From assembly GCA_038322705.1 (NCBI GenBank), contig JBBQGC010000016.1, positions 3,955 to 67,954 of the forward strand: 64,000 nt of DNA. The letters are read 5' to 3'. The notes beneath the pieces are model-generated. The model was not told where the DNA came from. It was given only the letters and a program-made list of their open reading frames with translations, and did no database searches. Origin of the DNA: Bryobacterales bacterium. Its GTDB lineage: Bacteria > Acidobacteriota > Terriglobia > Bryobacterales > Bryobacteraceae. Position numbers and translations under genes: made by a program. Below are positions 3,982-30,927 of the stretch, in pieces; the stretch's first letter is position 1, and the number at the start of each line of letters is the position of its first letter.

Positions 3982-4931
3982 TATTTTTCGCGAAAGCGCC
4001 GGATTTCCTCGATTTCGTCCTGGCTTAGGCGGAAATCGAGTGCGCCAATCACTCCTGAGGTCTGCTCGGCGGAACGCATGCCGACGATGGCGGCTGTGAC
4101 CGCGGGATGACGCAAGGTCCAGGCGATCGCGACCTCACCGGCGGTGCGGCCGTGGCGCGCGCCAATCTGTTTGCACAGCTCAGCGAGGCGTAGATTACGG
4201 CTGAGCGCGGGTTCCTGGAATGCAGCGGCGCGTTTGCGGAAGTCGTCTTCGGGGAACTTGGCGACGCGCTCGGGCGTCATGGCGCCGGTCAGGAGCCCGC
4301 TCTTCATCGGCGAATACACGATCACCCCGATACCATGCTGCTGGCAATAGGGCAGGATCTCGTCTTCGATCTCAGGCGAGATCATCGAGTATGGCGGCTG
4401 CACGGATGTGATGGGCGCAACGGCCCGGCATCGCTCCATCTGCGCGACATTGAAGTTGGACAGGCCGATCCACCGGACCTTACCCTGGCGTTGAAGCCCG
4501 GCCATCGCGGTCCAGCCCTCTTCGATATCTTCCTCGGGTTGCGGCCAGTGGATCTGATAGAGGTCGATCACATCCAGCTTTAAGCGGCGGAGCGAATTCT
4601 CGCACTCCTGGCGCACCGACCCGGCTTTGAGGCGTCCGCCGATCTGGCCTTTGTCATCCCACACGCGCTCGCACTTCGTAAAAACGTACGGGCGTTTCGA
4701 AGTTCCGGCCAGGGCGCGGGCGACAACCTCCTCGGAGTGGCCCAGGCCGTACACGGCGGCGGTGTCGATCCAGTTCACTCCGCGATCAAGCGCCGAGTGA
4801 ATGGCGGCGATGGATTCGTCGTCGTCCTGCGGACCCCAACCGAATTGCCAGCCGCCACCGCCCATGGCCCAGGCGCCGACGCCGATGGGCGTCAGATTCA
4901 TCCCACTGTTACCAAGCTGCTTCAGGTTCAT
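3981..4931 (-). CDS. Aldo/keto reductase
   Basis: MNLKQLGNSG... with GVNWIDTAAVYG and IGLSNF segments. Start set at ATG 4931 rather than the track start 4967. Confidence 0.9.
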   Translation of the reverse strand: MNLKQLGNSGMNLTPIGVGAWAMGGGGWQFGWGPQDDDESIAAIHSALDRGVNWIDTAAVYGLGHSEEVVARALAGTSKRPYVFTKCERVWDDKGQIGGRLKAGSVRQECENSLRRLKLDVIDLYQIHWPQPEEDIEEGWTAMAGLQRQGKVRWIGLSNFNVAQMERCRAVAPITSVQPPYSMISPEIEDEILPYCQQHGIGVIVYSPMKSGLLTGAMTPERVAKFPEDDFRKRAAAFQEPALSRNLRLAELCKQIGARHGRTAGEVAIAWTLRHPAVTAAIVGMRSAEQTSGVIGALDFRLSQDEIEEIRRFREK

Positions 4932-5209
4932 CGCCTTCTGGACGCCAGCCCTGGAACAATGTTCCAAGCTGGAGGTAGAACGTGCCGTTTCGGGACGTAG
5001 AAGATTCCATTTCGGCAGGGGCGGGCGGGATTAGCTGTTGAAACTTAAGGGCTTCAGAATTGGCATGAGGAGTGCTCCTAAAAAGAGCGTGAAGAAAACG
5101 CTGGTAGCTCGAGGAAATCAGGCTGCTCCGCTAACAAACCCGCAAATACTCACTTCAAAGTAAGAACCCAAGATACGACCCACCATAAATCCCTGCCCAG
5201 CCGGTTTCC

Positions 5210-5245
5210 TCGACGCGCCGCACTTCTGCGGCGCTCGACGTTTTT
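5210..5245 (+). terminator. Rho-independent terminator-like hairpin with no annotated plus-strand gene upstream
   Basis: Stem GCGCCGCA / TGCGGCGC with CTTC tetraloop, extended by a further 4 bp across one bulge, followed by CG-TTTTT. Confidence 0.5.
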
Positions 5246-5252
5246 AGGGGCA

Positions 5253-5521
5253 CTACATGACTCTACGTAGCAGGTTATTGTAAGCCTCGTGCGATCCTAT
5301 CCAAGCCCAGTAAAATCCTTCGGAATCGCGGTAGCCGATAACTCGATGCGATCGCCCGACGCGCCGGTCCACACATCTCCGACTTGCTTTAAGCCCAGCG
5401 AAGGATGGAATGGGTCGTTTCGGAACAGTTCATACTGCTTGTCGGCCAGGCGCTGCACTTCTAAGGGCAAACGCCCGTATAACTCCCAGAACCGAGGTGA
5501 TGCGAAGGATCGAAAGCTCAC
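5253..5521 (-). pseudogene. RelE/ParE-superfamily toxin interrupted by a 1-nt deletion (or assembly indel)
   Basis: The GTG-5521 frame reads ...FWELYGRLPLEVQRLADKQYELFRNDPFHPSLGLKQVGDVW and then turns to nonsense. The next frame continues RRVGRSHRVIGYRDSEGFYWAWIGSHEAYNNLL to a stop at 5253, which is the expected family C-terminus. The break is near 5366. Confidence 0.7.
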
Positions 5522-5536
5522 GATCGTTCGGATGTT

Positions 5537-5761
5537 TTAGGGCTTCTCAGGCCGACTTTGCTCAAATGGACGAAACCCGCCCGAGCGCGCCGCCTGTTTG
5601 AAAGTCTCAATCAACTCGATGCCTGGGCCACCCGGCGAGAAATCGCGTTCGATTTCGGCATCCCATTCCGCCTGCTCCTGATCGGCGAACCACGCGGCAA
5701 GCTCAGCCTGCTTGTCATTGGGGAGTTTTTGGATGGCGGCTTGGATCTCCGAAACGTCCAT
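5537..5761 (-). CDS. Antitoxin-like small acidic protein (addiction-module component) upstream of the broken toxin
   Basis: 74 aa, MDVSEIQAAIQKLPNDKQAELAAWFADQEQAEWD. It ends 15 nt before the toxin start on the same strand. Confidence 0.65.
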   Translation of the reverse strand: MDVSEIQAAIQKLPNDKQAELAAWFADQEQAEWDAEIERDFSPGGPGIELIETFKQAARSGGFRPFEQSRPEKP

Positions 5762-5801
5762 ATGCTTATGCTAACTCTCTCGCGTGGAGTGATGCTTAGT
5801 C

Positions 5802-7862
5802 TTACCAAACCCGGCAAACGGATTTGCGCACCATCGGCTGACCCGCCTTACACGAGAACGCTTCGGCGAACTCGGGCAGATTCGAAACCACTCCATTGAT
5901 CCGGTATTCGCCGGGGGAGTGCGGATCCACCATCGCCGTCGCGCGTTTGCTTTCCGGACGCTCGTCTTCGCAGGCCCATTGCGCCATGCCGACGAAGAAA
6001 CGCTGGTCGGGCGTGAGGTTATCCCTGGGCTCCAGGCGCTGGCCTTCGGTCGCATGCTTCCAGGCCATATAGGCCAGCAACGTTCCACCGATGTCGGCAA
6101 CGTCCTCGCCCAGCGTGAGGCGGCTGTTGATGCGAATGTCGTCGATCACCTTGTATTGGCCGTATTGCTCGACCACGCACTCGGAGCGCTTGGAGAACTG
6201 GGCCGCGTCCTGCTTGGTCCACCAATCGGTCAGATTCCCGCGCGCGTCGAACTGCCGGCCTTCATCGTCGAAGCCATGCGTCAATTCGTGGCCGATGGTT
6301 GACCCGGTATTGCCGTAGTTGGGCGCGTCATCGAGTTTCGGGTCGAACAGGGGCGGCTGCAGAACGCCGGCTGGGAAGTTAATGTCATTCATCTGCGCGT
6401 TGTAGTAGGCGTTCACGGTGGGCGGACTCATGCCCCACTCGCCACGATCGACGGGTTTGCCGATTTTCGCCAGGTCGCGGCGCGTCTCGAACCTGGCTGC
6501 GCGCTCGACGTTGGCTAGAAATGAACCGGGCTCTATTTCGAGCGAACTGTAATCGCGCCACTTATCGGGGTAGCCGATCTTGTTCACCATCGCGTGCAAC
6601 TTCTCGAGCGCGCGCTGCTTGGTGGCATCGCTCATCCACGTGATCTGGTGCAGATCGGTTTCCATGGCCCTCTCGATCTCGCGAGTCATGGTGAGCGCGC
6701 TCGCTTTGGTGCCGGCCTCGAACGTCTTGGAGACGAACACCTGGCCAAGCGCCTCGCCCAGGTCGCGATCGACATAGCGGACACAGCGCTTCCAGCGGGG
6801 TTGCATCTGTTTGACGCCGCGGAGGAAGGCTCCATAGAACTGGAAGTTGGCCTTCTCGAAACCGGAGGATAGATACGGCGCCGCCGCGTGTACCGCGTGC
6901 CAGCGAAGATAGGTCTTCCAGGCGGCGATATTACGCGAGCTCAGTTGCGCCTGCACCTGCTTGAAAAAGGCGGGCTCGGTGACGTTTAACTCCTTGGCAT
7001 CGGGGAGGCCGGAGTCCGTCAGGTAGCGATTCCAATCGAAGGCCGGAGTGAGGGCGGCCAACTGCGCCCGCGTCATCTTGTGAAACAGCTTGTAGGGATC
7101 GCGTTTCTCGACGCGGGTCAGCGATGCTTTGGCCAGCGCGGTCTCAATGTCCATCACGGTTTGGGCGCCCGCCTTGGCCGTGGTCCGGCTATCGCCCAGT
7201 AGTTCGAACATCTGCTCGACGTGTTCCAGATACTTGGCGCGGATCTCGATCGAACGCGGATCCGTCTTGGTGTAGTAATCGCGGTCGGGGAGGCCGAGAC
7301 CGCCACCGCTGAGGAACGCGATGACACGGGTGGAATCGCCGAAATCCTGATTGGAGCCGAAGCCGAACAGGAATCCATCGCCGCTGGTTTCGGCGTGGAA
7401 TTTGGCAAGCAATGGAGGGAGCCCGGCTGTGGATTTCAGGGCCGCGATTCCGTCCAGTTCCGCGCGCAGCGGACCAAGACCGGCCTTTTCGATGGCCGCC
7501 TCGTCGATGCACGAGCCGAAGTAGTCGCCGATTTTTTGTTGCGCGGTGGACCGCTGGCTGGAGGGTTTGGCTGCTTCTTCAAGAATGCCCCAGAGGAAGC
7601 GCTGGTTGTCGTCGGTCACCTTGGCGTAGACGCTCCAGCGGGCCTGGTCAGCGGGGATCGGGTTGTTCCTGATCCAGCCGCCGCAGGAGTAAAGATAGAA
7701 GTCGGAGCAGGGATCGACGGAGCGATCCATGGCGGCGGGATCCAGGCTTGGAGTGTATGGCAGGGTGGTGAGCGGACGTTCGGCCGTGGTGGGCGGAGCG
7801 GTCTGAGCGGCTAGCGGGACGACGGCAGCCAACAACCATAGGCTGAAGCGGGCATAAGGCAT
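5802..7862 (-). CDS. M13-family zinc metallopeptidase (PepO / endothelin-converting-enzyme-like), secreted
   Basis: HELTHGFDDEG (HExxH) and GEDVADIGG motifs. Signal peptide MPYARFSLWLLAAVVPLAAQ begins at ATG 7862 (track start was 7991). Confidence 0.9.
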   Translation of the reverse strand: MPYARFSLWLLAAVVPLAAQTAPPTTAERPLTTLPYTPSLDPAAMDRSVDPCSDFYLYSCGGWIRNNPIPADQARWSVYAKVTDDNQRFLWGILEEAAKPSSQRSTAQQKIGDYFGSCIDEAAIEKAGLGPLRAELDGIAALKSTAGLPPLLAKFHAETSGDGFLFGFGSNQDFGDSTRVIAFLSGGGLGLPDRDYYTKTDPRSIEIRAKYLEHVEQMFELLGDSRTTAKAGAQTVMDIETALAKASLTRVEKRDPYKLFHKMTRAQLAALTPAFDWNRYLTDSGLPDAKELNVTEPAFFKQVQAQLSSRNIAAWKTYLRWHAVHAAAPYLSSGFEKANFQFYGAFLRGVKQMQPRWKRCVRYVDRDLGEALGQVFVSKTFEAGTKASALTMTREIERAMETDLHQITWMSDATKQRALEKLHAMVNKIGYPDKWRDYSSLEIEPGSFLANVERAARFETRRDLAKIGKPVDRGEWGMSPPTVNAYYNAQMNDINFPAGVLQPPLFDPKLDDAPNYGNTGSTIGHELTHGFDDEGRQFDARGNLTDWWTKQDAAQFSKRSECVVEQYGQYKVIDDIRINSRLTLGEDVADIGGTLLAYMAWKHATEGQRLEPRDNLTPDQRFFVGMAQWACEDERPESKRATAMVDPHSPGEYRINGVVSNLPEFAEAFSCKAGQPMVRKSVCRVW

Positions 7863-19695: not shown

Positions 19696-19739
19696 AACGC
19701 CCCCACGGCCATCGGCGGCAGTGGGGGCGTTTTGTTTTT
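19696..19739 (+). terminator. Rho-independent terminator after the TonB-dependent receptor
   Basis: AACGCCCCCAC - 14-nt loop - GTGGGGGCGTT followed by TTGTTTTT. Confidence 0.8.
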
Positions 19740-20502
19740 ACACCAGTAGGAACCCGCCGTTTACCTCGATCATCTGCCCTTGAATGAATGCAGCCTCCTT
19801 CGAGCATAGGAATACGATCACATCCGCCACTTCTTCGGACGTACCCAGGCGGCCGAGTGGCGTCGCTTTGCGCACGCCGTCGAGCATCTGATCGGTGGAG
19901 AACGTTCGGTGGTAATTGGTGTCGATGGTGCCAGGAGAGACGCCGTTGACGCGCACGCCGGCCGGGGCAAACTCCTTGGCCAAACCCTTATTCATCGCGC
20001 TCAGCGCAGCCTTCGCGCTCGAGTAAGCGATGGCGCCCAACCCGCCGCCATTGCGCGCAGCGACGGATGAAATGTTGACGATGTAGCCGCGGCCGCGCTC
20101 GACCATATGCGGCAGCACCGCCTTCGAGATGAGCATCGCGCTGTCGAGATTGAGCAGGAACACTTCGCGCCACAACTCCGCGGTGAACTCGAGGAATCGG
20201 GTGCGCTTCACCAGCGATCCTGCGTTATTCACCAGGATGTCGATCTTGCGTGCGCCGAGCCATTCGAGGAACGCGTTGACGCCGTCGCTGTGGCTCAAGT
20301 CGGCTTGACGGATTTCGCCATCCGAGCCGGCCTCGCGCACGCGGCGCAGTACAACTTCGGCGCCTTCCTTGCCACGGTGATATTGAATCAGCACGCGTGC
20401 GCCACGCTCAGCAAATTTCACCGCGGCTTCAGCGCCGATCCCATTGCTGGAACCGGTGACCAGCGCGGTCAGTCCATCGAATTCTTTTGGGTCGTTGTTC
20501 AT
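19738..20502 (-). CDS. SDR-family oxidoreductase
   Basis: TGSSNGIG cofactor motif and YSSAKAAL catalytic YxxxK. Confidence 0.9.
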   Translation of the reverse strand: MNNDPKEFDGLTALVTGSSNGIGAEAAVKFAERGARVLIQYHRGKEGAEVVLRRVREAGSDGEIRQADLSHSDGVNAFLEWLGARKIDILVNNAGSLVKRTRFLEFTAELWREVFLLNLDSAMLISKAVLPHMVERGRGYIVNISSVAARNGGGLGAIAYSSAKAALSAMNKGLAKEFAPAGVRVNGVSPGTIDTNYHRTFSTDQMLDGVRKATPLGRLGTSEEVADVIVFLCSKEAAFIQGQMIEVNGGFLLV

Positions 20503-20539: not shown

Positions 20540-21985
20540 TTAGGCCACCGGTTGGCCGGCCGCGAGGGATAAGACGTTCGGCCCGCCCACGATCACATCG
20601 GTAGTGATGCGGCCGTTCTGGTCGAGCAGCACCGCGGACGGAGTGCCTTGAGCTCCGAATGCGCGTCCGATCGAAAAATTTTCATCCAACAGCACTGTGG
20701 ACCGGAAGCCTTGCGCGCGATTGGATTCCACAGTACCGGTTGAGATCACGACGAGCTCAGGCGCTTCCCTGCTCCGCCGCGACTCCCACTTCTTCAAATC
20801 GTCCAGCATCTGGCTGCAAAAGCCGCATCCGGGATTCCAAAAGAGCAGTAACACGGGCCTGCTGCGGAATGAGGCGAGCGGCACCATCGTTCCAGACAAA
20901 TCAGGCAGCGTGAAAGCAGGCGCGGGGTCGTTGCGCTTGGCGACGATGTTCACCAGGCCCGCGTTAATTGTGCGGGCGACCAGGCCGCGAATGGCATCGG
21001 CGCCCCCGGCGAGACTGGAAGCGATCTTGCCATCCCCCCCGATCAACACGGCAGTCGGCGTACCGGCGGCCTGATAGCTCTCCGAGATCTCACGCTCGCG
21101 CTGAAGCAGTACCAGATCGAGACCGTTCTGCCGGGCTTTCTTTCGATTGGCTTCGACGTCGCCGCGGCTGATCAGCACCGCGTAGAACTGGGCCTGGGCC
21201 TCACACTGCCACCGCGCGATATCGGGCAACAGGGCGTCGCAGGGCCCGCAGCCGGGGTCCGAGAAGAACAACATCACCGGGATGTCGTCCCGGCGCAGAT
21301 CGTTCAGCGTCATACTCTCGCCATCCAGCGATTCGGCGGTGAAGGGGGGCGCGGGTGTGCCCACTGGTAACCCCAAGGCGGCCGGGGCAGCAGCAGGTTG
21401 GGGCGCACCACCCGACGCAACTTGCTTTTCGATCGCTTCCAGCCGCAGCAGCACGCGCCCACCCTGTTTAATGAGCTGCAAGGTGGCCCACGTTTGGAGG
21501 GCAAATAGCGCCAGCATGCCTACTCCGAACATCAGGAGGACGGTTTCGCCGCGCGTGAAGGCGTCCATCCAACCGATTATACTTGGGCCGGGGCCACGGT
21601 ACGCCACCAGCAGAGCGATCGCGGCGAAGGCGATGTTGCGGGCCAGCGTGCTCCAGCCTGCCGGAGCGGAGTGGATCTGGCCGAAGCAGTGGCAATCCGG
21701 CGACTTACCACGCGCCAGGTTAAACGCAATGGCCACGCTAAAGATGCAAAGCAGTGCCAATACGCCCAGGGCAGCCCAATGCGCGGAAGAGGCGGCAAGC
21801 ATGGCGGCCGCGAGCACGATTTCGGCTATAGGAAGCAGTAAGCCGAAGGGGTTGGCCAGCGCCACGGGAAGCCCGAATCCGGCGAGTGCGCGGCGCGATC
21901 CCGGCAGGTCGGCCAGCTTGGCGAACCCGGCCACAAAGAAGATACAACTGAGGGCCAGGCGTGCCAGCAAAAGCACTGAATCCAT
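20540..21985 (-). CDS. Membrane thiol-disulfide oxidoreductase: MauE/DoxX-type membrane domain fused to two TlpA/MauD-like thioredoxin-fold domains
   Basis: N-terminus is MDSVLLLARLALSCIFFVAGFAKLADLPGSRRALAGFGLP plus further TM helices. Two redoxin modules follow, with FSDPGCGPCDALLP and FWNPGCGFCSQML. Confidence 0.75.
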   Translation of the reverse strand: MDSVLLLARLALSCIFFVAGFAKLADLPGSRRALAGFGLPVALANPFGLLLPIAEIVLAAAMLAASSAHWAALGVLALLCIFSVAIAFNLARGKSPDCHCFGQIHSAPAGWSTLARNIAFAAIALLVAYRGPGPSIIGWMDAFTRGETVLLMFGVGMLALFALQTWATLQLIKQGGRVLLRLEAIEKQVASGGAPQPAAAPAALGLPVGTPAPPFTAESLDGESMTLNDLRRDDIPVMLFFSDPGCGPCDALLPDIARWQCEAQAQFYAVLISRGDVEANRKKARQNGLDLVLLQREREISESYQAAGTPTAVLIGGDGKIASSLAGGADAIRGLVARTINAGLVNIVAKRNDPAPAFTLPDLSGTMVPLASFRSRPVLLLFWNPGCGFCSQMLDDLKKWESRRSREAPELVVISTGTVESNRAQGFRSTVLLDENFSIGRAFGAQGTPSAVLLDQNGRITTDVIVGGPNVLSLAAGQPVA

Positions 21986-22108
21986 ATGGGTCAGGATACA
22001 CGATTGACGCCCCGCACTTCACTCCGGAAATTTCGATCAGGAACGGGTTACTCCGGCTCGATTCGGGATGGAAACTTGCCCGTAAGTGTGTTAGTATCGG
22101 CCAAGCAT

Positions 22109-22654
22109 ATGCACGCTCCAGAGAAGAATCTCCAAGTGACTTCAGTCTTCGACACCTTCAGCAAGGCGATCGCGGCCCCTCTCGGGCGGCGAGGTCTCCT
22201 GAAGATGCTGGCTGCCTCTGTTGCAGCGGCATTTCTGCCCAAGAAGGCGGCTGCGGCCGTCTTTCCATGCGGGTCGCCGGTTAGCGTCGCGCTCACCGCA
22301 TCGAACCCGTTGTGCGATGCGACCCTAACGGCTACGTTGTGCGCGGGCCTTCTGGTCACCGTGCAGCAGAACCTGATTGCGCTGTGTCCCGGGACATGTC
22401 CCATCGGCGCGGTAGCGACGGCATGCGTCTGCAATAACGGAACCGTGACGGCGAACGCCAATGCGATTTGCGTCTGTACTGCCGGCACCACACCGTGCGG
22501 CAACGGTTGCTGTGCCGCGGGTTCGCTGTGCTGCGGCGGACAGTGTGTTCCATCCACTTGCGCCAATTGCGGCACGTGCGGAAACGTCTGCCCCGCGGGT
22601 TCGTGCTGCGTCAACGGACAATGCGCAACCTCAGGCGTTCAGGCTTGCTGCTAA
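22109..22654 (+). CDS. Twin-arginine-signal, cysteine-rich secreted protein (181 aa, 24 Cys)
   Basis: ATG 22109. Leader is ...PLGRRGLLKMLAASVAAAFLPKKAAAA. The mature part ends GCCAAGSLCCGGQCVPSTCANCGTCGNVCPAGSCCVNGQCATSGVQACC. The track N-terminal extension from 21986 would abut the divergent gene. Confidence 0.6.
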   Translation: MHAPEKNLQVTSVFDTFSKAIAAPLGRRGLLKMLAASVAAAFLPKKAAAAVFPCGSPVSVALTASNPLCDATLTATLCAGLLVTVQQNLIALCPGTCPIGAVATACVCNNGTVTANANAICVCTAGTTPCGNGCCAAGSLCCGGQCVPSTCANCGTCGNVCPAGSCCVNGQCATSGVQACC

Positions 22655-22687
22655 CGGCTCGGTAGTTCGCCCGGCAAGAAGCGGGCC

Positions 22688-23890
22688 TTGGGAAACTTGC
22701 GATGGTATCTGGGTGCTCCAGGAGTTCTGCTCCTGGCGTACGCTATTTCGTGGCTCACCCTCATCCGGACAGCTACCGTTGACACGGCCGCCGAGTCACG
22801 GCTGTGCCATGCCGGTATCTGCTCGACGGACACGGTTATCGACAGCGCGCGGCGGACACTGAGTCAACAGCCCGCTGCCGCGGCGAATCTGTTTGGGCGT
22901 GCCGCGATGCGCGAGGTCACGTCTCCCCATCGCTGGTGCGATCTCGGCGATTCCCTGCTGATCGCAAAACAGGTCGATGCCGCGCGGCGCTGCTACCGTC
23001 AGGCTGAGTCGCTCGGCCCTCTCATTCCCCCCGTCCTGCTTCGGGTGGCAGGCTTCTATCTTTACGAGAATGACCGCCAGCGCGCGCTCGCTTGCGTGTC
23101 GAAGATCCTGCATGAAGCCCCGATGTATTGGGAATCGATATTCGCGCAATACGGTCTATTCGGACAGGACTTCCTGCGCTACGGCATGCCGGAAGAGACC
23201 GGTCCCGCTGCGGCGTATCTCCGCTATGCAATACGTGCGCAAGACAGGGCGCGCGCGGCCGGTATCTGGACGTGGGTGAACGCTCACAAGCTGGACGACG
23301 ATACCCTGGCGAACGAATACGCCGTGTTCCTTTTGGATCACAGGCAGTATCGCGAGGCAGCGGACGCCTGGGCCCAACACGCCGGCAAGGGCAGCGAATA
23401 TCGCGCGTCCAACTGGATCTACAACGGAGGTTTCGAGTCTGAGCCGGGCGGGCGCCTCTTCGATTGGCGTGTGACGCCGGTGAAGAACGTCGAGGTTCAG
23501 ACCGATTACCGGCATCCGTTCGCGGGCAAGCGCGCGCTGCGAATCACGTTCGAACAGGCCAACAATGCGCTATACAGCGGGGTGGCACAGACGGCGGTTG
23601 CGGGTCCGGGCACGTGGCGGTTCGAAGCGCACATTCGTACTGAGGGCGTGCCGGACGATCAGGGTTTCGCGTTCCACCTCTTTGATAAGCTCGGGCCGCG
23701 GCGCCTGGATGTCCACACCAACTTCGTCAAGGGGCTGACGCCGTGGACGACGCTCGAGAAGACGTTCCGGCTCTCCGAACCCGTCACGCTGCTGGAGGCA
23801 ATGCTGGAGCGCGCGCCGTCTTTCTCGCCCGACGATCGGATGCGCGGGTCCGCTTGGATTGACGGCGTGATCCTGCGGCGGGTCGAGTGA
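22688..23890 (+). CDS. Membrane-anchored TPR-like protein with C-terminal beta-sandwich (carbohydrate-binding-module-like) domain
   Basis: TTG start and one N-terminal TM (GAPGVLLLAYAISWLTLI). The middle is helical-repeat. The C-terminus (NGGFESEP...FDWRV...GKRALRITF...AWIDGVIL) resembles CBM4/9-type modules. Confidence 0.6.
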   Translation: MGNLRWYLGAPGVLLLAYAISWLTLIRTATVDTAAESRLCHAGICSTDTVIDSARRTLSQQPAAAANLFGRAAMREVTSPHRWCDLGDSLLIAKQVDAARRCYRQAESLGPLIPPVLLRVAGFYLYENDRQRALACVSKILHEAPMYWESIFAQYGLFGQDFLRYGMPEETGPAAAYLRYAIRAQDRARAAGIWTWVNAHKLDDDTLANEYAVFLLDHRQYREAADAWAQHAGKGSEYRASNWIYNGGFESEPGGRLFDWRVTPVKNVEVQTDYRHPFAGKRALRITFEQANNALYSGVAQTAVAGPGTWRFEAHIRTEGVPDDQGFAFHLFDKLGPRRLDVHTNFVKGLTPWTTLEKTFRLSEPVTLLEAMLERAPSFSPDDRMRGSAWIDGVILRRVE

Positions 23891-25251
23891 CTGGCCAGCG
23901 GCTGTCGCTCGCCGCACTCGCGTTGCTGAGCGCTGCTCTGGCATACGGCGCGGCACGTTATGGAGCCACGGCTGCGCCGGACTGGCGTGTGTCGATGGCG
24001 TTGATCGGCGCGGCGGCGCTGCTGATCCCGCTGCTCGAGCGCGCCCCTGGCGGGCCACCCGCATTGGGCGCCTGGCTGAAGTGGCCGATGATCCTGTTTG
24101 TGGCGTACGCGCTATTCCAAATCACGCCACTGCCGGTGTTCTCGTTGAATCTGTTTTCGCCGCGCAAGGCGGAACTGTTGGCGGCGCTTGCGGATGTAGG
24201 ACAGCGGCATGGTTTCGCGCCGATGAGCGTCGTGCCGCCGCTGACGTTCGACTATTTTTTGCGAACGGTGACGTATGCCTGCGTGTTCCTGGTGGCGCGC
24301 GAAGCAGTATGGTGGAACAGCGCGCGCCCGTGGGTGGCTGCGGCGCCTATGATGGCCATCGGATTTGTCGAGGCGGGATACGGGCTGATCCGCTATGCAG
24401 CGGGCCTGGGCAAGGTGGCGCACGGCAGCTATGTGAACCGCAATCACTTTGCCGGCTTGCTCGAGATGGTGTTGCCGTTCTTCATCCTGTACGCGGCGTG
24501 GCTGGTACGCAAAGCTCGCCGCAGCGGGCGCTGGCCGGTGAAGCTGGCGCTCGCGCTATATGCGTTGGGCGCGGGTGCATGTGTGGTTTTCGCAGCGATC
24601 CTGTACTCGCTGTCGCGCATGGGATTCGCCGCCTCGCTCGCCGCTATGATCGCGGTGGCGTACCTGCAATTCCGGCGGCAAATGCCGCTGATTCTGCGGA
24701 TCGCGTTGCTCGCCGGATGCGCTGTCGCGTTTGTCGCGGGGCTGATTCTGCTTGCGCCGGCAGAGATGGCGGACCGCATGGCAAACGTCGCCGAGAATGG
24801 AGATGCGGCTCCCGCGTTGCGCCTTGCCACGTGGCTGGATACCCTGCATCTGATTCGCGACTATCCGCTGTTTGGCTGCGGCCTCGGCGGCTTTGCGAAC
24901 ACCTTTCTGCGATACCAGACGGTTTCGCCTGCGTGGAGCTATCCGCACGCGCACAACGATTACCTGCAGATGGTGGCGGAGATGGGGATACTCGGCTCGA
25001 TGCTGCCCGCCGCGTTGATGGCCGGGATCGTGATGAAGACGATCGGCGCGACATCGAAGCGATACGAGGCGCACGTGCGTTTTCTCGCGTTAGCCTGTGC
25101 AGGATCGCTGACCGCCATCCTGATTCACAGCTTCACCGATTTCAATACGCACATTCCGGCGAACGCGGTTGCGATGTCCTGGGTTGCCGGCATCGGGGTG
25201 GCACTCAGCGATTTTCCGCGGCGTGGAGCGCGCCCGAACCGTTTCGGATGA
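23887..25251 (+). CDS. O-antigen ligase / Wzy_C-family polytopic membrane protein
   Basis: About 12 TM segments. Wzy_C signature region is GCGLGGFANTF...YPHAHNDYLQMVAEMGILG. GTG start overlaps the upstream stop (GTGA). Confidence 0.8.
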   Translation: MTGQRLSLAALALLSAALAYGAARYGATAAPDWRVSMALIGAAALLIPLLERAPGGPPALGAWLKWPMILFVAYALFQITPLPVFSLNLFSPRKAELLAALADVGQRHGFAPMSVVPPLTFDYFLRTVTYACVFLVAREAVWWNSARPWVAAAPMMAIGFVEAGYGLIRYAAGLGKVAHGSYVNRNHFAGLLEMVLPFFILYAAWLVRKARRSGRWPVKLALALYALGAGACVVFAAILYSLSRMGFAASLAAMIAVAYLQFRRQMPLILRIALLAGCAVAFVAGLILLAPAEMADRMANVAENGDAAPALRLATWLDTLHLIRDYPLFGCGLGGFANTFLRYQTVSPAWSYPHAHNDYLQMVAEMGILGSMLPAALMAGIVMKTIGATSKRYEAHVRFLALACAGSLTAILIHSFTDFNTHIPANAVAMSWVAGIGVALSDFPRRGARPNRFG

Positions 25252-25275: not shown

Positions 25276-25602
25276 TCACGCGGCGCTGCGCGGCTGAACC
25301 TCGCTCGCGATCTTAGTTTCCCACCGGTCGCGAGCGGTCTCGAGTTCGTAACGGCTCTGCATGTTCAACCAGTACTCGGGCGTGGTGTTGAAGTATCGAG
25401 CCAGGCGAAGAGCGGTCTCACCGGTGATAGAACGCTGGCCCGCTACGATGGCGTTAATCCTATTAGCGGGTACTCGAATGCTGGTGGCCAGTTGGTTCAT
25501 CGTGAGGCCCAGGTCCGCAATTGCCTCCTTCAATATCTCGCCTGGGTGGACCGGAGCGAGCCTCGCGGGGGTGTTACCGGTAATGCTTCGTGATTTCGAC
25601 AT
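25276..25602 (-). CDS. higA: HigA-family antitoxin (XRE-type HTH)
   Basis: VHPGEILKEAIADLGLTMNQLATSIRVPANRINAIVAGQRSITGETALRLARYFNTTPEYWLNMQ. Start at ATG 25602. Confidence 0.85.
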   Translation of the reverse strand: MSKSRSITGNTPARLAPVHPGEILKEAIADLGLTMNQLATSIRVPANRINAIVAGQRSITGETALRLARYFNTTPEYWLNMQSRYELETARDRWETKIASEVQPRSAA

Positions 25603-25855
25603 CGTAGGCGTGACCATCCTTCCAAATGAAACAGACCCGGAACTGGTCGTTGACTCGAATGCTGTGCTGGCCCTGGCGGTCGCCCGTAAGCGCTTCCAAC
25701 TGGTGGCCCCGAGGAGTGCGAAGGTCACTCAGTTTTTGGGCCGAATCTAAAGCAGTCAAGCGCCGTAATGCGACGACCTCGATGTTGGCCAAAGCCGCGA
25801 CGCGCTCGCGACGGAACACTCGTTCCGTATCACGCGATCGGAAGCTCCGGATCAC
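25574..25855 (-). CDS. higB: HigB-type (plasmid maintenance killer) toxin, RelE/ParE superfamily, intact
   Basis: 93 aa: MIRSFRSRDTERVFRRE...LEALTGDRQGQHSIRVNDQFRVCFIW. It overlaps higA by 29 nt, in toxin-first order. Confidence 0.85.
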   Translation of the reverse strand: MIRSFRSRDTERVFRRERVAALANIEVVALRRLTALDSAQKLSDLRTPRGHQLEALTGDRQGQHSIRVNDQFRVCFIWKDGHAYDVEITKHYR

Positions 25856-25938: not shown

Positions 25939-28900
25939 TTAAAAATCGAGCCGCAATGCTAGCTGGATATCCCGGTTCCCCGCCTTCGATTGGACGCGTC
26001 CAAAAGAGGAGCTCGTCGTTGTTACATTCGGGTTGCTCCAATTCGGGTGATTCAAGACGTTGAATGCCTCACCGCGCAGTTGGAAGCGCAGCCGCTCCGT
26101 GACTTGGAAGTTTTTGCGCACGGCGAAATTCGATATCTCGGCCCCTGGGCCGCGAATAACTCCTCTTCCCCCGTTTCCAAACGTGCCTGCAGCGGGTAGA
26201 ACAAATGCGGCTTTATTGAACCAAAAGTTCTGATCCCCGTTCGATATCGAGAACGCTCTATTCGAGATCGACGGGCTTCCAACCACGCTCCACGGTTGCG
26301 CTCCGTTGCCTGTCCCGATGCCAGCTTGATCGACGGTGCCTAAGACGGAAAGTGCAACACCGCTCTGGAATTGACTGATTCCCGAAATCTCCCATCCGCC
26401 CAAAGTCTTTCCCAGCAGGCTGTGATTGTTCTTGAGAAATGGAAGGTCGTAGATGTAATTCAACACCATGACATGAGTCCGGTCGAAGGTGGACGGACCA
26501 CGCGAGAGACTGGCGTCGTAGGGATCGAACAGCAGTTCGCTCTTTGTATCCGCGTTGGTGATGCTCTTCGAATAAGTGTAGGCGACGCCGAACGCGAGGC
26601 CCGAGCGGAAGCGGCGATTTAACTGCGTCTGAAGCCCGTGATAGTTCGCCTGAGCCGCTGCTTCGGCCAGGGTGATCGGACCATAGCCCTGATACGGGCG
26701 TAGCGCGTCGGCGTTGACGCCTGGGTTGGCTTGAACCGTCCCTGGCTGCAGCGCGTTGATGTTGCGCGCTCGCAGAAGATGATAGGCGGAGCGTCCCACG
26801 TAGGCGACATCGAGCGTCATGGCCCATGGCAATTGACGCTGCACCGTGAAGTTCCAATTCCACGCGATCGGAGCCTTGTTTACCGGGTCCTGCATGCTCA
26901 CCACCAACGGGTAGTTGTATCTGATACCACCCGATCCTGCCGGCGCGTCGGCGAGACCATTGGTGACCGCTTGAATGACTTGGAGAGGAGCGTTGCCGCC
27001 GAGTAGAGTGCTGTCATTGATCATCATGCGGTTGTGAAAAGCGCCAACACCGGCTCGAATCACTGTTTTGTCGTTGATGCTGTATGCCAACCCGACGCGC
27101 GGATCGAGGAGATTGTTGGTGCGGGCGAGTCCATCCGGGAGGTCGTGGAAGAGGTATTGCAGCGACTGGTCACCTGCGAGCGGAACGCGCCCGATTTCGG
27201 CCGGATTCCACGTTTTGCCGGGCAAGGTCATGCCGTTATACAGAGGTCCGCTGACGATAAAGCCGCCTTTGCGATCGACCACGGCAGCGTTCTTGGAATC
27301 GTAATATTGCGGGTTGAATGACGCAATGTTACCCCACAAACTGGACCACGGGGGCCAGTGCTCAAAGCGGAGACCGTAATCGAATTTCAAGCGCGCGTTG
27401 ATTTTCCAACCGTCTTGAAAGAATAACTCAGTGGCCGTTGCGCGATACGGTGTGTAGTCCTTTTTTCCAACTTCGCCGTATGTGTTGAACAGACCCAAGG
27501 CTGCGTTCGCGATCGCTACGCCGGTGGTCATCGCCGTTCCGGTATCGCTGAACGAGAATTGACCGTTGGGATTATTCGTGCCGCCCGGGAAAGCCGTTGA
27601 TGGAACTTCGTCGCGATCGTTTTCGCCGGACCGCTCGATGTAGATACCGGCTTTAAACGTATGGTTGCGCCAGATCTTAGTGACTGTGTCGGTCCACACG
27701 AAGATGGGGCCGCCCGAATAGGACGGGTAAGGTCCGCCGTCCACGGTGGTAAAGTTCGCGATCGTGATTGTCGGGATTTTGTTCGGCAGATCCTTCGTGC
27801 CCGGGAACAAGTACGGGTAGTTAATACCGTACTGGCTCCGGTCGTAGCGTCCATTCGGCGCAACATCGTTCCAATCGCGATCTTCGCTAGCGGTAAACGC
27901 TGCTTCGTTGATCAGGGTCGGACTGACGACGGTAGTCAGGCTTGCGACCAGGTGTAGTTAGGTCGATTTGTCTGCAATTGGACAAGATTGAAGGCGCCTC
28001 GAAACTGCTGTGTCTCGTGAAACTCGTATACCGTTGCACGGACCGAGAAGGTGTTCTTGTTATTGGGCCGGTAATCAATTTTGAACGTATCCTGACTCGT
28101 GTCACGCGGATCGGGACCCGTCGAGGTCCAGTTAGTAGCGCCGACAATGCTCAGGCCGGGCGTCGGGACGGGATAAGTGTTCAACAGCGCAACGCCATTC
28201 GGACTCAGGCGGCCCTTGGGAATGATGTTGCCGGGGAAAGGAGCGCCTGTTGCCGGATCGTTGATAACTCGGGTGCGGCCGAAGTAAATGTTAGCGGGAT
28301 TCAGTAGCTCGCTAAAATCGCCTTGACGCATGGCGAGTGAGGGAACCGTGGCGGTGCTGGTGGAATACTGATGCCACTTGATGAACTGAAGCGAGTGGAA
28401 GAAGAATAACTTGTTCCTATCGGCGTTGAATTTGCCGGGGATGAAGACGGGTCCGCCAATGGAGTAGCCGAATTCGTTGAAGCGGTAGGGCGTGGGTGAG
28501 GCCTGGCTGGCGATGCCCGATGCGTTGCGCGCCCAGGTGTTCGTGTTCAGGGCATCGTTCTTGAAGTACTCCCAAAGTCCACCGTGGAAGTCGTGTCCGC
28601 CGCTCTTGGTGATGTAGCGTATCTGGCCGCCCGACACGCGTCCGTATTCGGCGCTGCAGTCGGCGGTCAATACCTGGACCTCCTGGAGCGTATCGACATT
28701 GAGTGTTCCGAGAATCGCCCCATTGGCGCGGGTTCGCAGGGCAACGGCTCCGTCCACGGTGATTCCGTTCTCATCGGTGCGTCCGCCGTTGATGCTGAAG
28801 TTGCCATTGCCGAGGCCGTCCGGATCGAACGTGGCGATGCTCGATGAACTGTTCACGCCCGCCAGCAAGAGCGGCAGATACAGAGGATTGCGGCCGTTCA

Positions 28901-29335
28901 AGGTGAGATCCTCGATCTGCTTGGTTTCCACAACGCGTCCGACCTGCGCACTATCCGTTTGAAGCGGAGCCGCGGTGGCAACGATGTCGACGGATTCGGC
29001 GAGCGAGCCGACCACGAGTTCGATATTGACGGTCGCTGTGGAAGCGGCGTCGAGCTTCACGTTGGCTTCGGAGAATTTCTTGAAGCCCGGCGACTCGACC
29101 TCGACAGTGTAGATGCCAGTCACCAGATTCGGCGCCTGGTAAAAACCGCGCTCGTTCGTCTTGCTTTGAAAGGTTGCGCCGCTTGCTTCGTTTCTAATCT
29201 TCACGCAGCACCGACCACGGCTGCACTGCTCGGATCTTTTACGAACCCTGAAATCTGGCCTTGGTCCAGTTGGGCCAGCAAACAGCCGGCCAGCAGAAGC
29301 GTACCCAGAATGCTGAAACTGATCGATCGTTTCAT
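25939..29335 (-). pseudogene. TonB-dependent receptor (CarboxypepD_reg type) broken by two 1-nt deletions (or assembly indels)
   Basis: ATG 29335 reads MKRSISFSILGTLLLAGCLLAQLDQGQISGFVKDPSSAAVVGAA-stop. The next frame continues VKIRNEASGATFQSKTNERGFY... to 27936. A third frame continues SLTTVVSPTLINEAAF...YGINYPYLFPGTKDL... to 25939, ending ...LALRLDF. Confidence 0.8.
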
Positions 29336-29346
29336 AAGCGCTAACC

Positions 29347-30927
29347 TCACTGAATCGCGTTCGTGTTATCGGGACCGAACCGGCGGTGATCGGTGTTAAC
29401 CACGCCCGCGGTTCTGCCGGGCCAGAAAATCTGCTTTGCGCCCCAGCCGGCCAGACAAACGAGAATTCCTCCGATGATACCTGAAATGGCGGCCTTGCGT
29501 ATCCACGGACCGTACGCAGTCCCGGGCTCCACGGAGACCTTCGCGCCGGGGCGCATACATCCGAAAAACAGCAGAATTGTGCAAGCCACGGCATTCATCG
29601 TCATGAACCATTCCGTGACAAGCCGGATGGGGGTGAAGCGCGGAAGCACGTGGACGAAGTTGATGGTGACGATCGACCACAAGAAGACGAGATAGAAGAG
29701 TTGTCCTTTACCCAGCCAGCTTTCGGTGATAAAAGCCAATGGGCGGCGGAGGTGCAGGATCAGCAATAGGATCATCGCGAAGGCAATCGCGAGATAGACG
29801 AACTCGAACCAGCCGAGAAATCCGCGAGTGGGTAGGAAGTCTGCAGCGATGTGGATGCCGTATAACTGGGGCGTGAGATCCTTGACTTCCTTGACCCACT
29901 CACCGGGGCTTCGGCGAAAGTTCAGGTAGGTGAGAACGCACAGGACGAAGGTGACGCTGAAGACTTCGGTCCAACGGCGCAAAGGCGGCGCATCGTGAAC
30001 TGGCGGCGCTCTGTGGATGAGAAGGCCGATGCCGATTGCGAGGGCGATGCCGAGAAAAAAGCCCTGGGTCTGTTCCATGACGCTATGCCAGTTCGTGTCG
30101 AATCCGGTGGCCATCACCATGATCTTGACCGCGGTGCCAAGCGCAAATCCGATGCCGCCTAGCAGTCCCAGCGCCACGGTCGCAAATCCGATTCCGCCGA
30201 GGCCGTTACGCCAGCAGCACGCGAGAATGCCGAAGATCATGCCCAGGTATCCGGCCCAGCTATCGCCGCGTGGAGGATTCAGTTCCAGATGCAGCAATTC
30301 GATGAGCAGTAGATGTCCTACGCACCAGCCGGCGGACATGTAGAGGATCATCGACGCGCCGATGCCCCAATAGCGGCGGCGGACAGCAATTACAACGAGC
30401 ACAGCTACCCCGGCGAGGATCGCGCTCATCGCCTGGCCCGCGAGGAACGGAAACCACGCGGCATTGATTCCGCGATACCAGCTTCTGAGCGCGTCCTGCA
30501 GATACCAGGCACCGAAAACTGCGCAGAGCGGGAGGAATAATTTCGTCAGTTCATCGCGGCTTAAGTAGATGGGCAGCGCGACGCCTGTGCCGCCGGGTGC
30601 CGCCCAGATGAAGCCGATCAGAACGAGGGTCGCGAAACCGTAGAGGACGGTTGCCGGGTCGGACGAATGGGTTAGCGCGACATTCTTCATGTACGACATG
30701 CCGCCGCCGAACGCCAGCCCGATTGCGCCGAAGAAGGCGAAGTAATGGACGCGGCGCATCCAGTCGGGCCGTCCGCTGAGCATCGCGACGACCATGCCGC
30801 CCAACGCCCCCGCGAGCGCCGCTCCGTACTCGTGACCGAATTGGCCGCGAATCCCCCAACCGATGGAAACAGATAACCCCGTGAGCAGAACGAGCTGCCA
30901 CGGCAACCGTCGAATGCCGTTGAACAT
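29347..30927 (-). CDS. Uncharacterised polytopic membrane protein (~526 aa, about 14 predicted TM segments)
   Basis: MFNGIRRLPWQLVLLTGLSVSIGWGIRGQFGHEYGAALAG... is hydrophobic throughout. It ends 11 nt before the receptor start on the same strand. No family recognised. Confidence 0.65.
   Translation of the reverse strand: MFNGIRRLPWQLVLLTGLSVSIGWGIRGQFGHEYGAALAGALGGMVVAMLSGRPDWMRRVHYFAFFGAIGLAFGGGMSYMKNVALTHSSDPATVLYGFATLVLIGFIWAAPGGTGVALPIYLSRDELTKLFLPLCAVFGAWYLQDALRSWYRGINAAWFPFLAGQAMSAILAGVAVLVVIAVRRRYWGIGASMILYMSAGWCVGHLLLIELLHLELNPPRGDSWAGYLGMIFGILACCWRNGLGGIGFATVALGLLGGIGFALGTAVKIMVMATGFDTNWHSVMEQTQGFFLGIALAIGIGLLIHRAPPVHDAPPLRRWTEVFSVTFVLCVLTYLNFRRSPGEWVKEVKDLTPQLYGIHIAADFLPTRGFLGWFEFVYLAIAFAMILLLILHLRRPLAFITESWLGKGQLFYLVFLWSIVTINFVHVLPRFTPIRLVTEWFMTMNAVACTILLFFGCMRPGAKVSVEPGTAYGPWIRKAAISGIIGGILVCLAGWGAKQIFWPGRTAGVVNTDHRRFGPDNTNAIQ

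Follow-up and report, generated by a model that had tools for sequence, protein, structure and literature searches.

Locus organization

We analyzed a 64,000-nt stretch of DNA (the window) from a Bryobacterales bacterium (assembly GCA_038322705.1, contig JBBQGC010000016.1, positions 3,955 to 67,954) and focused on a group of four genes, referred to here as genes A to D, in which a fused MauE-thioredoxin protein is encoded next to a small cysteine-rich protein with a twin-arginine leader. Gene A (window positions 20540 to 21985, minus strand) encodes a 481-amino-acid (aa) MauE-thioredoxin-thioredoxin fusion, predicted to be a membrane disulfide-forming oxidoreductase. Gene B (22109 to 22654, plus strand) is divergent from A and encodes a 181-aa precursor with 24 cysteines that is predicted to be exported. 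It is followed on the same strand by gene C (22688 to 23890; 400 aa), which has a transmembrane (TM) anchor, a TPR region, and a CBM_4_9-like region, and by gene D (23887 to 25251), a 454-aa polytopic Wzy_C (O-antigen-ligase-like) protein. A and B are separated by 123 bp and B and C by 33 bp, while C and D share 4 bp. An initial annotation of this DNA had reported these coordinates and spacings, the 24 cysteines, and the leader and C-terminal string of B, and all were exact on re-reading. We consider it probable, with moderate confidence, that A is a self-contained oxidative-folding module and that B is its all-disulfide client, exported by the twin-arginine translocation (Tat) system and possibly glycosylated by D and C.

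A MauE domain fused to two thioredoxin domains

Pfam identified a MauE domain in residues 1 to 129 of gene A (21599 to 21985, minus strand, as for all features of this gene; E = 1.2e-25; PF07291, 90.7 bits against a cut-off of 27), together with AhpC-TSA (5.3e-25), Redoxin (5e-19), and Thioredoxin_2, with two stretches per thioredoxin family. These matches agree with the motif positions and with the architecture first proposed, MauE plus two thioredoxin domains carrying CGPC and CGFC. The MauE domain comprises four TM helices, the first of which contains K23 and the second E55, and its active-site motif C98-H-C100 (21686 to 21694, in the context PDCHCFG) is located in the TM3-TM4 loop. A fifth TM helix (about residues 149 to 167) and a long helix (residues 144 to 190) were recognized at 21416 to 21556 from hydropathy and from the AlphaFold2 (AF2) model, which gives a helix at 144 to 189. 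Thioredoxin-fold domain 1 (20951 to 21373, about residues 205 to 345) includes C246-G-P-C249 at 21239 to 21250, and domain 2 (20543 to 20938, about residues 350 to 481) includes C387-G-F-C390 at 20816 to 20827.

Homologues of gene A are numerous (>2771 at E below 1e-10). Across 16 aligned homologues (alignment A2, which numbers one lower than gene A, its query being without M1), PDCHCFG, the TM1 Lys, and the TM2 Glu are invariant, and the G-T-P of the cis-Pro loop is invariant in both thioredoxin domains. The same 16-member alignment indicates a family with two to four thioredoxin domains, the first with CGPC and the rest with CGFC; the CGFC domain is the unit repeated in the three- and four-domain relatives. 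The AF2 model (mean predicted local distance difference test [pLDDT] score, 83.7) places the MauE helices at residues 2 to 24, 40 to 62, 64 to 90, and 110 to 129. Foldseek related the thioredoxin domains to ResA, TlpA/DsbE, and Etrx2 with TM-scores to target of up to 0.86, those to ResA being 0.83 to 0.86 (E of ~1e-9). Assuming a cytoplasmic N terminus, the CXC loop would be extracytoplasmic, as would the two thioredoxin domains, on the same side of the membrane. The top NCBIfam matches of gene A were MauD and ResA, both well under their equivalog/subfamily cut-offs (71.3 bits against 188.6 for the MauD equivalog TIGR02661). By sequence, the thioredoxin domains are MauD-like, yet gene A is not MauD.

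MauE was recently proposed as a generalist DsbB-like oxidase (Gonzalez et al., March 2026; bioRxiv 10.64898/2026.03.05.709764). Stand-alone MauE proteins replace DsbB in Escherichia coli, and their CXC motif, which is followed by a conserved F-G, is required by mutagenesis; the conserved Lys of TM1 and Glu of TM2 are at the predicted quinone site (bioRxiv 10.64898/2026.03.05.709764). The same preprint found 8.2% of MauE entries fused to thioredoxin-superfamily domains, in parallel to VKOR-thioredoxin fusions. Every sequence feature published for MauE as a DsbB-like disulfide generator is found in gene A, and since both the oxidase role and the fusions are described in the preprint, gene A alone is no longer unnamed.

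A predicted exported protein with 24 conserved cysteines

The longest open reading frame (ORF) for gene B starts at 21986 and would encode 222 aa, as in the public gene call P0001. We favor the start at 22109 on three grounds. The start of the homologue P0002 (180 aa) corresponds to this one, and distant homologues begin 3 to 19 residues ahead of the FD motif; the G+C content at third codon positions is 0.51 upstream of 22109 and 0.70 downstream; and the extension to 21986 would abut the start codon of A. The leader occupies residues 1 to 50 (22109 to 22258), with F14-D15 at 22148 to 22153 and the twin arginines R27-R28 at 22187 to 22192. Its residues 26 to 50, GRRGLLKMLAASVAAAFLPKKAAAA, read as G-R-R-G-L-L-K, a 12-residue uncharged core, a P-K-K c-region, and an A-A-A cleavage motif. 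A basic c-region (PKK, PRK, or PKR), a Sec-avoidance feature of Tat signals, is present in 6 of 14 members of the B family, including the four closest. The only library model touching the leader was the Tat signal TIGR01409, which aligned where expected (residues 26 to 43) but below its cut-off (12.7 against 16.7 bits). Taken together, export of B by Tat appears likely.

All 24 cysteines of B lie after residue 53. The mature N-terminal domain (22259 to 22483, residues 51 to 125) is predicted to form a strand, a helix, and a beta-hairpin, and the C-terminal module (22484 to 22651, residues 126 to 181) is dense in CC and CxxC and shows a distant relation to Stig1-like/MXAN_6577-like repeats. The 131-aa mature protein has a single charged residue (D70) and no His, and 51% of it is Ser, Thr, Asn, Gly, and Ala. 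From the near-zero charge, the small residues, and the predicted dense cross-linking, B would be a highly stable protein that is secreted or resides in the envelope. The four closest members (B, P0002, P0123, and P0124) have 0 to 2 charged residues per 120 to 132 aa and no His, a composition that is extreme for a soluble exported protein.

No match to B was found in Pfam, NCBIfam, or PDB sequences. A word-indexed search recovered only B itself and P0002, which is 61% identical and keeps all 24 cysteines, and its profile version recovered seven proteins. An exhaustive profile search with B yielded 221 proteins at E<=0.001, about a dozen of which are full-length relatives (160 to 200 aa) with the leader and the cysteine framework. 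This framework consists of C54, C69, C93-P-x-x-C97-P, C106-x-C108, and C121-x-C123, followed by the C-terminal C-x-N-C-G-x-C-G...C-C-V-N-G-x-C, and its core is retained down to ~30% identity. Homologues with conserved cysteines thus exist; the initial annotation would have counted their absence against its proposal. The rest of the 221 proteins match only residues ~130 to 175 of B; these contain multiple repeats and match Pfam Stig1 and the NCBIfam MXAN_6577-like family, and two of the Stig1-like/MXAN_6577-like repeat proteins (P0153 and P0176) carry a B-type leader. B itself gave no match to PF04885 or NF041328 at E<=0.1. An AF2 model built from 14 sequences reached pLDDT values of 76 to 86 over the mature part, with a strand, a helix, and a hairpin followed by small hairpins, and Foldseek returned nothing from the PDB at E<0.1. 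Two other identities considered for B were rejected: it has no lipobox ahead of C54, which argues against a lipoprotein, and its mature part contains no aromatics save one Phe, which argues against a hevein-like chitin binder.

Linkage of MauE-thioredoxin genes to cysteine-rich partners

We scanned 80 genomic loci encoding relatives of A for cysteine-rich ORFs. The closest relative, a 1.5-kb contig (L001), preserves the divergent pair, with B 61% identical and A 64% identical over the 228 residues present. Many other relatives of A are likewise adjacent to cysteine-rich genes (100 to 880 aa, 12 to 124 Cys), whose mature regions are mutually unrelated and whose leader is common. The leader consensus is x-R-F-D-x-L-T-K-x-L-A-x3-S-R-R-x-x-L-K-x-L; the version in B reads F-D-T-F-S-K-A-I-A-A-P-L-G-R-R-G-L-L-K-M-L (FD-x11-RR-x-L-L-K) and scores E = 6.5e-12 against the leader hidden Markov model (HMM). 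This HMM matched 53 of 6270 ORFs, nearly all of them with 7 to 20% Cys. Among the 44 cysteine-rich hits in loci with a MauE-thioredoxin gene, 38 lie less than 1 kb from that gene, where 20% would be expected from the DNA available (binomial p = 7e-21), and 33 of 71 MauE-thioredoxin loci are paired. Linkage was also recovered in the opposite direction: in a reciprocal metagenome scan starting from the leader, 32 of the 37 complete leader genes with enough flank have a MauE-thioredoxin gene within 1 kb, in a sample biased to the FDE[LF]T[KR]xLA leader subtype by the narrow alignment used. In these soil pairs, the MauE-thioredoxin gene mostly follows on the same strand after 135 to 590 bp. The pair recurs in at least six bacterial phyla, and paired loci were seen in Chloroflexota, Acidobacteriota, Verrucomicrobiota (including Udaeobacter), Actinomycetota, Rokubacteria, and an alphaproteobacterium. 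The adjacency of A and B described in the initial annotation is kept in the closest relative and, as a class, the pairing holds both ways.

A could nevertheless be the housekeeping equivalent of DsbB plus DsbA, with B as one substrate of many and the adjacency without special meaning. The proposal of MauE as a generalist (bioRxiv 10.64898/2026.03.05.709764) fits this explanation, as do the location of distant B homologues elsewhere in their genomes and the roughly one-half of MauE-thioredoxin loci without a cysteine-rich neighbor. The unpaired loci are often from Thermomicrobiales, with an rsgA-like gene beside the MauE-thioredoxin gene, and their share indicates that this enzyme class also has general substrates. 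Against an incidental adjacency stand the strength of the linkage in both directions, the mostly same-strand arrangement with operon-like spacing, and the presence of such pairs in six or more phyla, in which a single common leader precedes unrelated mature domains. We consider the housekeeping explanation unlikely and B the protein most likely folded by A.

Cysteine parity bears on the state of these thiols. The mature part has an even number of cysteines in 14 of 14 members of the B family, and even counts were found for 41 of 48 leader-bearing proteins in genome loci (p = 3e-7) and 45 of 54 in metagenome loci (~85% of leader proteins). This pattern is expected of all-disulfide proteins and counts against a free-thiol metal binder, in which the thioredoxin domains would act reductively or as isomerases and B, its cysteines kept reduced, would be a metallothionein-like periplasmic protein exported by Tat in a metal-loaded form. 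A metal binder would accord with the CGPC motif, with the ResA/TlpA-like fold, and with a Tat-type leader, which suits cofactor-loaded cargo. It is at odds with the lack of His and near lack of Asp and Glu in B, as well as with its ordered AF2 fold, and to our knowledge there is no electron source for reduction by MauE. The preprint mentions an older report that viewed MauE as a possible reductase, while its own CXC-dependent MauE replaces DsbB, an oxidase (bioRxiv 10.64898/2026.03.05.709764). Given the parity, we set the metallothionein-like explanation low, as very unlikely.

A third possibility refines rather than opposes the client role of B. B and its leader relatives might be secreted cystine-knot bioactives (antimicrobial, inhibitor, or toxin-like), with the leader as a maturation handle and A as the tailoring enzyme, comparable to the precursors of conotoxins or of ribosomally synthesized and posttranslationally modified peptides. 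One leader on hypervariable mature regions and tandem leader-gene paralogues at four loci (L007, L031, L051, and L080) would fit, as would a leader-bearing partner of a MauE-thioredoxin gene in a Dictyobacter sp. metagenome-assembled genome (L047, 5048 to 5791) that has about five knottin-like repeats and matches spider-toxin and conotoxin Pfam families above cut-off (Toxin_29, 7.5e-14, 51.9 bits). Many partners are large, however (300 to 880 aa, up to 124 Cys), suggesting structural or matrix proteins; B itself has 131 aa and is almost uncharged, and the pair has no conserved neighbor encoding an immunity protein, a transporter, or a protease. We regard a bioactive role as rather unlikely. 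The tandem array of L051 (4758 to 5836) comprises three leader genes, two encoding 100 aa with 12 Cys and a shorter one with 6.

A leader resembling that of MauA

In the mau and aau clusters of annotated plasmids, mauE, mauD, and the light-chain gene are contiguous in that order. We examined four MauA/AauA precursors from proteobacteria (L169, 3812 to 4378; L170, 2995 to 3516; L171, 2968 to 3519; L172, about 2995 to 3537), and all begin with an [RFV]-F-D motif located 13 to 24 residues before (T/S/G)-R-R. The leaders are MLGNFRFDDMVEKLSRRVAGQTSRRSVIGKLG in Paracoccus denitrificans MauA, MRRFDRAAEYLARSAARGTSRRGFIGRLG in the Novosphingobium aromaticivorans light chain, MSKFFDR...TGRRSFLAKAG in Pseudomonas aeruginosa AauA, and MGVFDSWFERSARGVAQHSSRRSAMAKLG in the Burkholderia cenocepacia light chain. 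Against a background of 9130 ORFs, the leader HMM detected P. denitrificans MauA at E = 7.6e-4 and the N. aromaticivorans protein at 0.023, and gave no significant score for P. aeruginosa AauA or the B. cenocepacia precursor. The FD-to-RR spacing of B is 4 or more residues shorter than that of MauA. The resemblance between the two leaders appears real but modest, and it strengthens the analogy with MauE and MauD. The logic first suggested for the locus, a MauE/MauD-type machinery acting on a Tat-exported cysteine-rich client, is supported in this respect and extended by the MauA-like leader.

The Bryobacterales locus shares with mau and aau clusters a MauE, a TlpA-like thioredoxin protein, an adjacent small multidisulfide client (a putative one here), and a twin-arginine client leader with an N-terminal FD motif. 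It differs in that gene A fuses the MauE and MauD-like parts and doubles the thioredoxin domain, and in that B resembles MauA in sequence only in the leader. Neither mauB nor mauG, nor any amicyanin or tryptophan tryptophylquinone-related gene, was seen nearby, the flanks having been scanned with Pfam and the larger ORFs of the window judged by eye. A mau cluster was thus rejected, with no mauA or mauB nearby and the MauD cut-off missed, in line with the earlier statement that both genes are lacking and that the client is unlike MauA.

A broader and more tentative proposal is that the FD-x(11-18)-S-R-R leader is a handle coupling Tat export to MauE-thioredoxin enzymes. The leader would then be common to MauA and to hundreds of unrelated cysteine-rich proteins in soil bacteria of many phyla, these would be bacterial conotoxin-style precursors, and the acidobacterial product would be O-glycosylated by Wzy_C together with its TPR/carbohydrate-binding partner. 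We consider this proposal rather unlikely.

Two observations were made alongside the leader comparison. We know of no prior discussion of the conserved FD N-region of MauA/AauA. On the Thermomicrobium roseum megaplasmid (L173), a MauA-like light chain at ~4900 to 5315 is unannotated in the PLSDB gene table; directly downstream (5344 to 7134) is a 596-aa ORF with a C-terminal MauE domain (CSCFG) and a large N-terminal non-thioredoxin domain, and a second light-chain gene is nearby.

Genes C and D

Gene C has an N-terminal TM helix (22709 to 22765), a TPR region (~22865 to 23392), and a CBM_4_9-like beta-sandwich (~23411 to 23887). The membrane anchor described in the initial annotation was recovered as one helix. 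The TPR and CBM assignments of C fall under the Pfam cut-offs when C is taken alone (TPR_2, E = 0.001, 19.4 bits against 27; CBM_4_9, E = 0.015, 16.1 against 25.9) and recur across the family, CBM_4_9 in five (best, 1.6e-4) and TPR_2 in four (best, 1.1e-10) of six members. The Wzy_C assignment of D is above cut-off (2.8e-21; 76.3 bits against 31.7; domain at 24583 to 25005). D has at least seven hydrophobic segments, and its Wzy_C domain contains H-N-D-Y-L-Q...E-M-G. In NCBIfam, D matched PEP_O_lig_1 (5.3e-13) and TfpM (1.1e-5), both far under cut-off; the TfpM-type protein O-oligosaccharyltransferase family was not reached (24.8 bits against 600). Sequence searches of the PDB with C and D gave no useful information.

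Homologues of C and D adjoin those of A and B at three other loci from Acidobacteriota, where the genes are shuffled in order. L074 has B, a 240-aa gene, a D-C fusion, and then A; L042 has D, B, and A and, close by on the opposite strand, C; and L032 has A, B, and then a D-C fusion. The set is incomplete in L028 (D and A), L069 (A with a fragment of C), and L024 (fragments). In L074 and L032, D is joined N-terminally to the C homologue; these fusions, together with the 4-bp overlap of C and D in the window, indicate that the two proteins work together, and since C and D recur beside A and B, all four may take part in one process. The 240-aa gene of L074 (944 to 1666) has no Pfam match and no relative in the fetched loci.

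The surroundings at other loci provide a different explanation, in which C and D are ordinary envelope-polysaccharide ligase or polymerase genes with a TPR/CBM partner, functionally unrelated to A and B. Most members of the Wzy_C family are glycan ligases or polymerases, C has a weak resemblance to PrsT in the NCBIfam scan, and D is like PEP_O_lig_1 of exosortase-type exopolysaccharide loci. The module is flanked by exopolysaccharide genes in L042 and L069, where Pfam identified an epimerase, Glycos_transf_4, a NusG paralogue, and CpsB/CapC; such neighbors make a general exopolysaccharide role possible for C and D. The exopolysaccharide-type loci of the MauE-Trx2 gene are at L042 (15 to 1696 and 9238 to 9870), L069 (3328 to 4095), and L064 (5076 to 5651), the last a NusG-like ORF recognized by eye. 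Against an unrelated function, C and D stand beside A and B both in the window and, in shuffled order, at the three further loci, and in the window the four genes stand alone, with no glycan cluster visible near them when its larger ORFs were judged by eye. We take a purely polysaccharide role to be quite possible, if short of probable. Protein O-glycosylation by D would be the alternative suggested by synteny.

Compared with WaaL and PglL/PilO/TfpM, D is alike in being polytopic and in having a Wzy_C domain with the H-N-x-Y-L...E-x-G motif. It is unlike them in its RfaL, TfpM, and PEP_O_lig_1 scores, which are far under the cut-offs, and in having a TPR plus CBM_4_9-like partner that is sometimes fused to it.

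Intergenic region and flanking genes

The 123-bp divergent region between A and B (21986 to 22108) contains a putative promoter element that was read by eye. This extended -10-like element, TGTTAGTAT, is located 11 nt upstream of the ATG of B, and its counterpart in L001, TGTTAAGAT, is 9 nt ahead of the ATG of the B homologue. No Shine-Dalgarno sequence was found ahead of B in this region, and a consensus promoter and terminator scan of the locus gave background level only.

The Pfam-scanned flanks of the four-gene group contain unrelated genes, namely, a TonB-dependent outer membrane protein, a short-chain dehydrogenase/reductase (SDR), HigBA, and a split TonB-dependent receptor. The SDR gene (19738 to 20502, minus strand) follows A on its strand after 37 bp, so that cotranscription is possible. 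Homologues of A at other loci lack this neighbor, and we do not include it in the module. A type II toxin-antitoxin pair directly follows gene D (25276 to 25855, minus strand), with a HigB-like toxin at 25574 to 25855 (PF05015, 1.1e-14) and an HTH_3 antitoxin within 25276 to 25728. Beyond it, a TonB-dependent-type outer membrane protein is apparently split over two minus-strand ORFs (25939 to 27810 and 27936 to 29594). One ORF holds OMP_b-brl_4 positions 1 to 199 with Plug and CarboxypepD_reg, and the other holds positions 253 to 838, which likely reflects a frameshift, a pseudogene, or an assembly error.

A proposed model for oxidative folding of the putative client

The model that we favor starts from the domain content, the motifs, the conserved cysteines, and the gene linkage in both directions. 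The MauE domain of A would make a disulfide at the extracytoplasmic C98-H-C100 loop in a DsbB-like manner, with electrons passing to quinone; oxidase activity via CXC has been shown for other members of the MauE family (bioRxiv 10.64898/2026.03.05.709764). The fifth TM helix and the long helix would carry the two ResA/TlpA/MauD-like thioredoxin domains to the CXC side of the membrane, where these domains, with their CGPC and CGFC sites, would accept the disulfide, put disulfides into the substrate, and probably reshuffle them as well. B would be the dedicated substrate. Its twin-arginine leader with a MauA-like FD N-region would direct export, most probably via Tat, and may also mark the client. 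After cleavage behind A-A-A, B would be oxidized to ~12 disulfides and become compact, with almost no charge and a high content of Thr, Ser, Gly, Ala, and Asn. C and D would form one unit, a Wzy_C enzyme with a periplasmic TPR/carbohydrate-binding-like module, whose most likely action would be to transfer a glycan from an undecaprenyl carrier to B or to tie B to an envelope or exopolysaccharide glycan. In this scheme, the direction of electron flow in A, the Tat route, the status of B as a substrate, its glycosylation, and its biological role are what we infer.

Several points weigh against this model of a dedicated folding module. Reducing thioredoxins have CGPC as their active site, and ResA and TlpA are reductants, so that domain 1 of A could act reductively or as an isomerase. 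The Tat model match of B is under cut-off (12.7 against 16.7 bits), and Tat cargo is normally folded, whereas B would need oxidation after export. A and B are divergent and not cotranscribed in the window, about half of the sampled MauE-thioredoxin genes are unpaired, and the distant B homologues P0126, P0127, and P0277 have no MauE gene within 5 to 8 kb. Elsewhere in Acidobacteriota, the locus sits among exopolysaccharide genes, and the predicted action of D on a protein competes with lipid A-core or polysaccharide as acceptors.

Relation to known systems

The closest described relative of gene A is the system of the MauE preprint. It shares with gene A the four-helix MauE, the periplasmic CXC-F-G, the Lys and Glu residues, and fusion to thioredoxin-superfamily domains. 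The proteins tested there were stand-alone MauE with CGC, from Calditrichota and Thermodesulfobacteriota, whereas gene A has CHC; the fusions were counted there as a class, whereas in gene A two thioredoxin domains follow each other and a putative dedicated client gene lies alongside. Clients, gene neighborhoods, leaders, and Tat are not treated in that work (Gonzalez et al., March 2026; bioRxiv 10.64898/2026.03.05.709764).

The arrangement also recalls VKOR-thioredoxin fusions and DsbL/DsbI. In both, a quinone-linked membrane oxidase is joined to or paired with a thioredoxin-fold carrier, and DsbL/DsbI is a DsbA/DsbB paralogue pair encoded beside a specific substrate. In contrast, gene A belongs to the MauE family rather than to VKOR or DsbB, the thioredoxin domains of the A family, two to four in number, are of the ResA/TlpA and not of the DsbA type, and the clients here are defined by a common leader. 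On the side of the client, the last ~50 residues of B resemble the Stig1-like/MXAN_6577-like repeats (PF04885 and NF041328) at the profile level (residues 130 to 175), while its N-terminal domain is distinct from them and has no PDB relative.

The initial annotation could name no described system with this composition. In full-text literature and the MauE preprint, we found no description of leader-defined clients, of their linkage to MauE-thioredoxin genes, or of the addition of Wzy_C and TPR-CBM genes to the pair in Acidobacteriota. MauE-thioredoxin fusions as such had already been noted (bioRxiv 10.64898/2026.03.05.709764). Gene A is thus of an already known kind, and its pairing with a putative client gene is apparently undescribed.

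Implications

MauE is a third type of bacterial disulfide generator, shown only in 2026, and MauA is essentially its only known natural substrate. The pair described here nominates hundreds of natural MauE clients with 12 to 124 Cys, each tied to a fused oxidase and carrier. These clients are linked to MauA by their leader, which raises the question of how Tat export is combined with extensive disulfide formation. A single gene providing both oxidase and carrier, tuned to knottin- or Stig1-like proteins, could also aid the production of disulfide-rich peptides. Should the leader indeed act as a handle, it would define a general leader-directed pathway for hypervariable cystine-knotted secreted proteins. 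The pair is abundant in Chloroflexota, Verrucomicrobiota (Udaeobacter), and Acidobacteriota of soil, which are poorly studied yet dominant there, and these organisms may therefore have a class of secreted or envelope proteins that has gone unrecognized.

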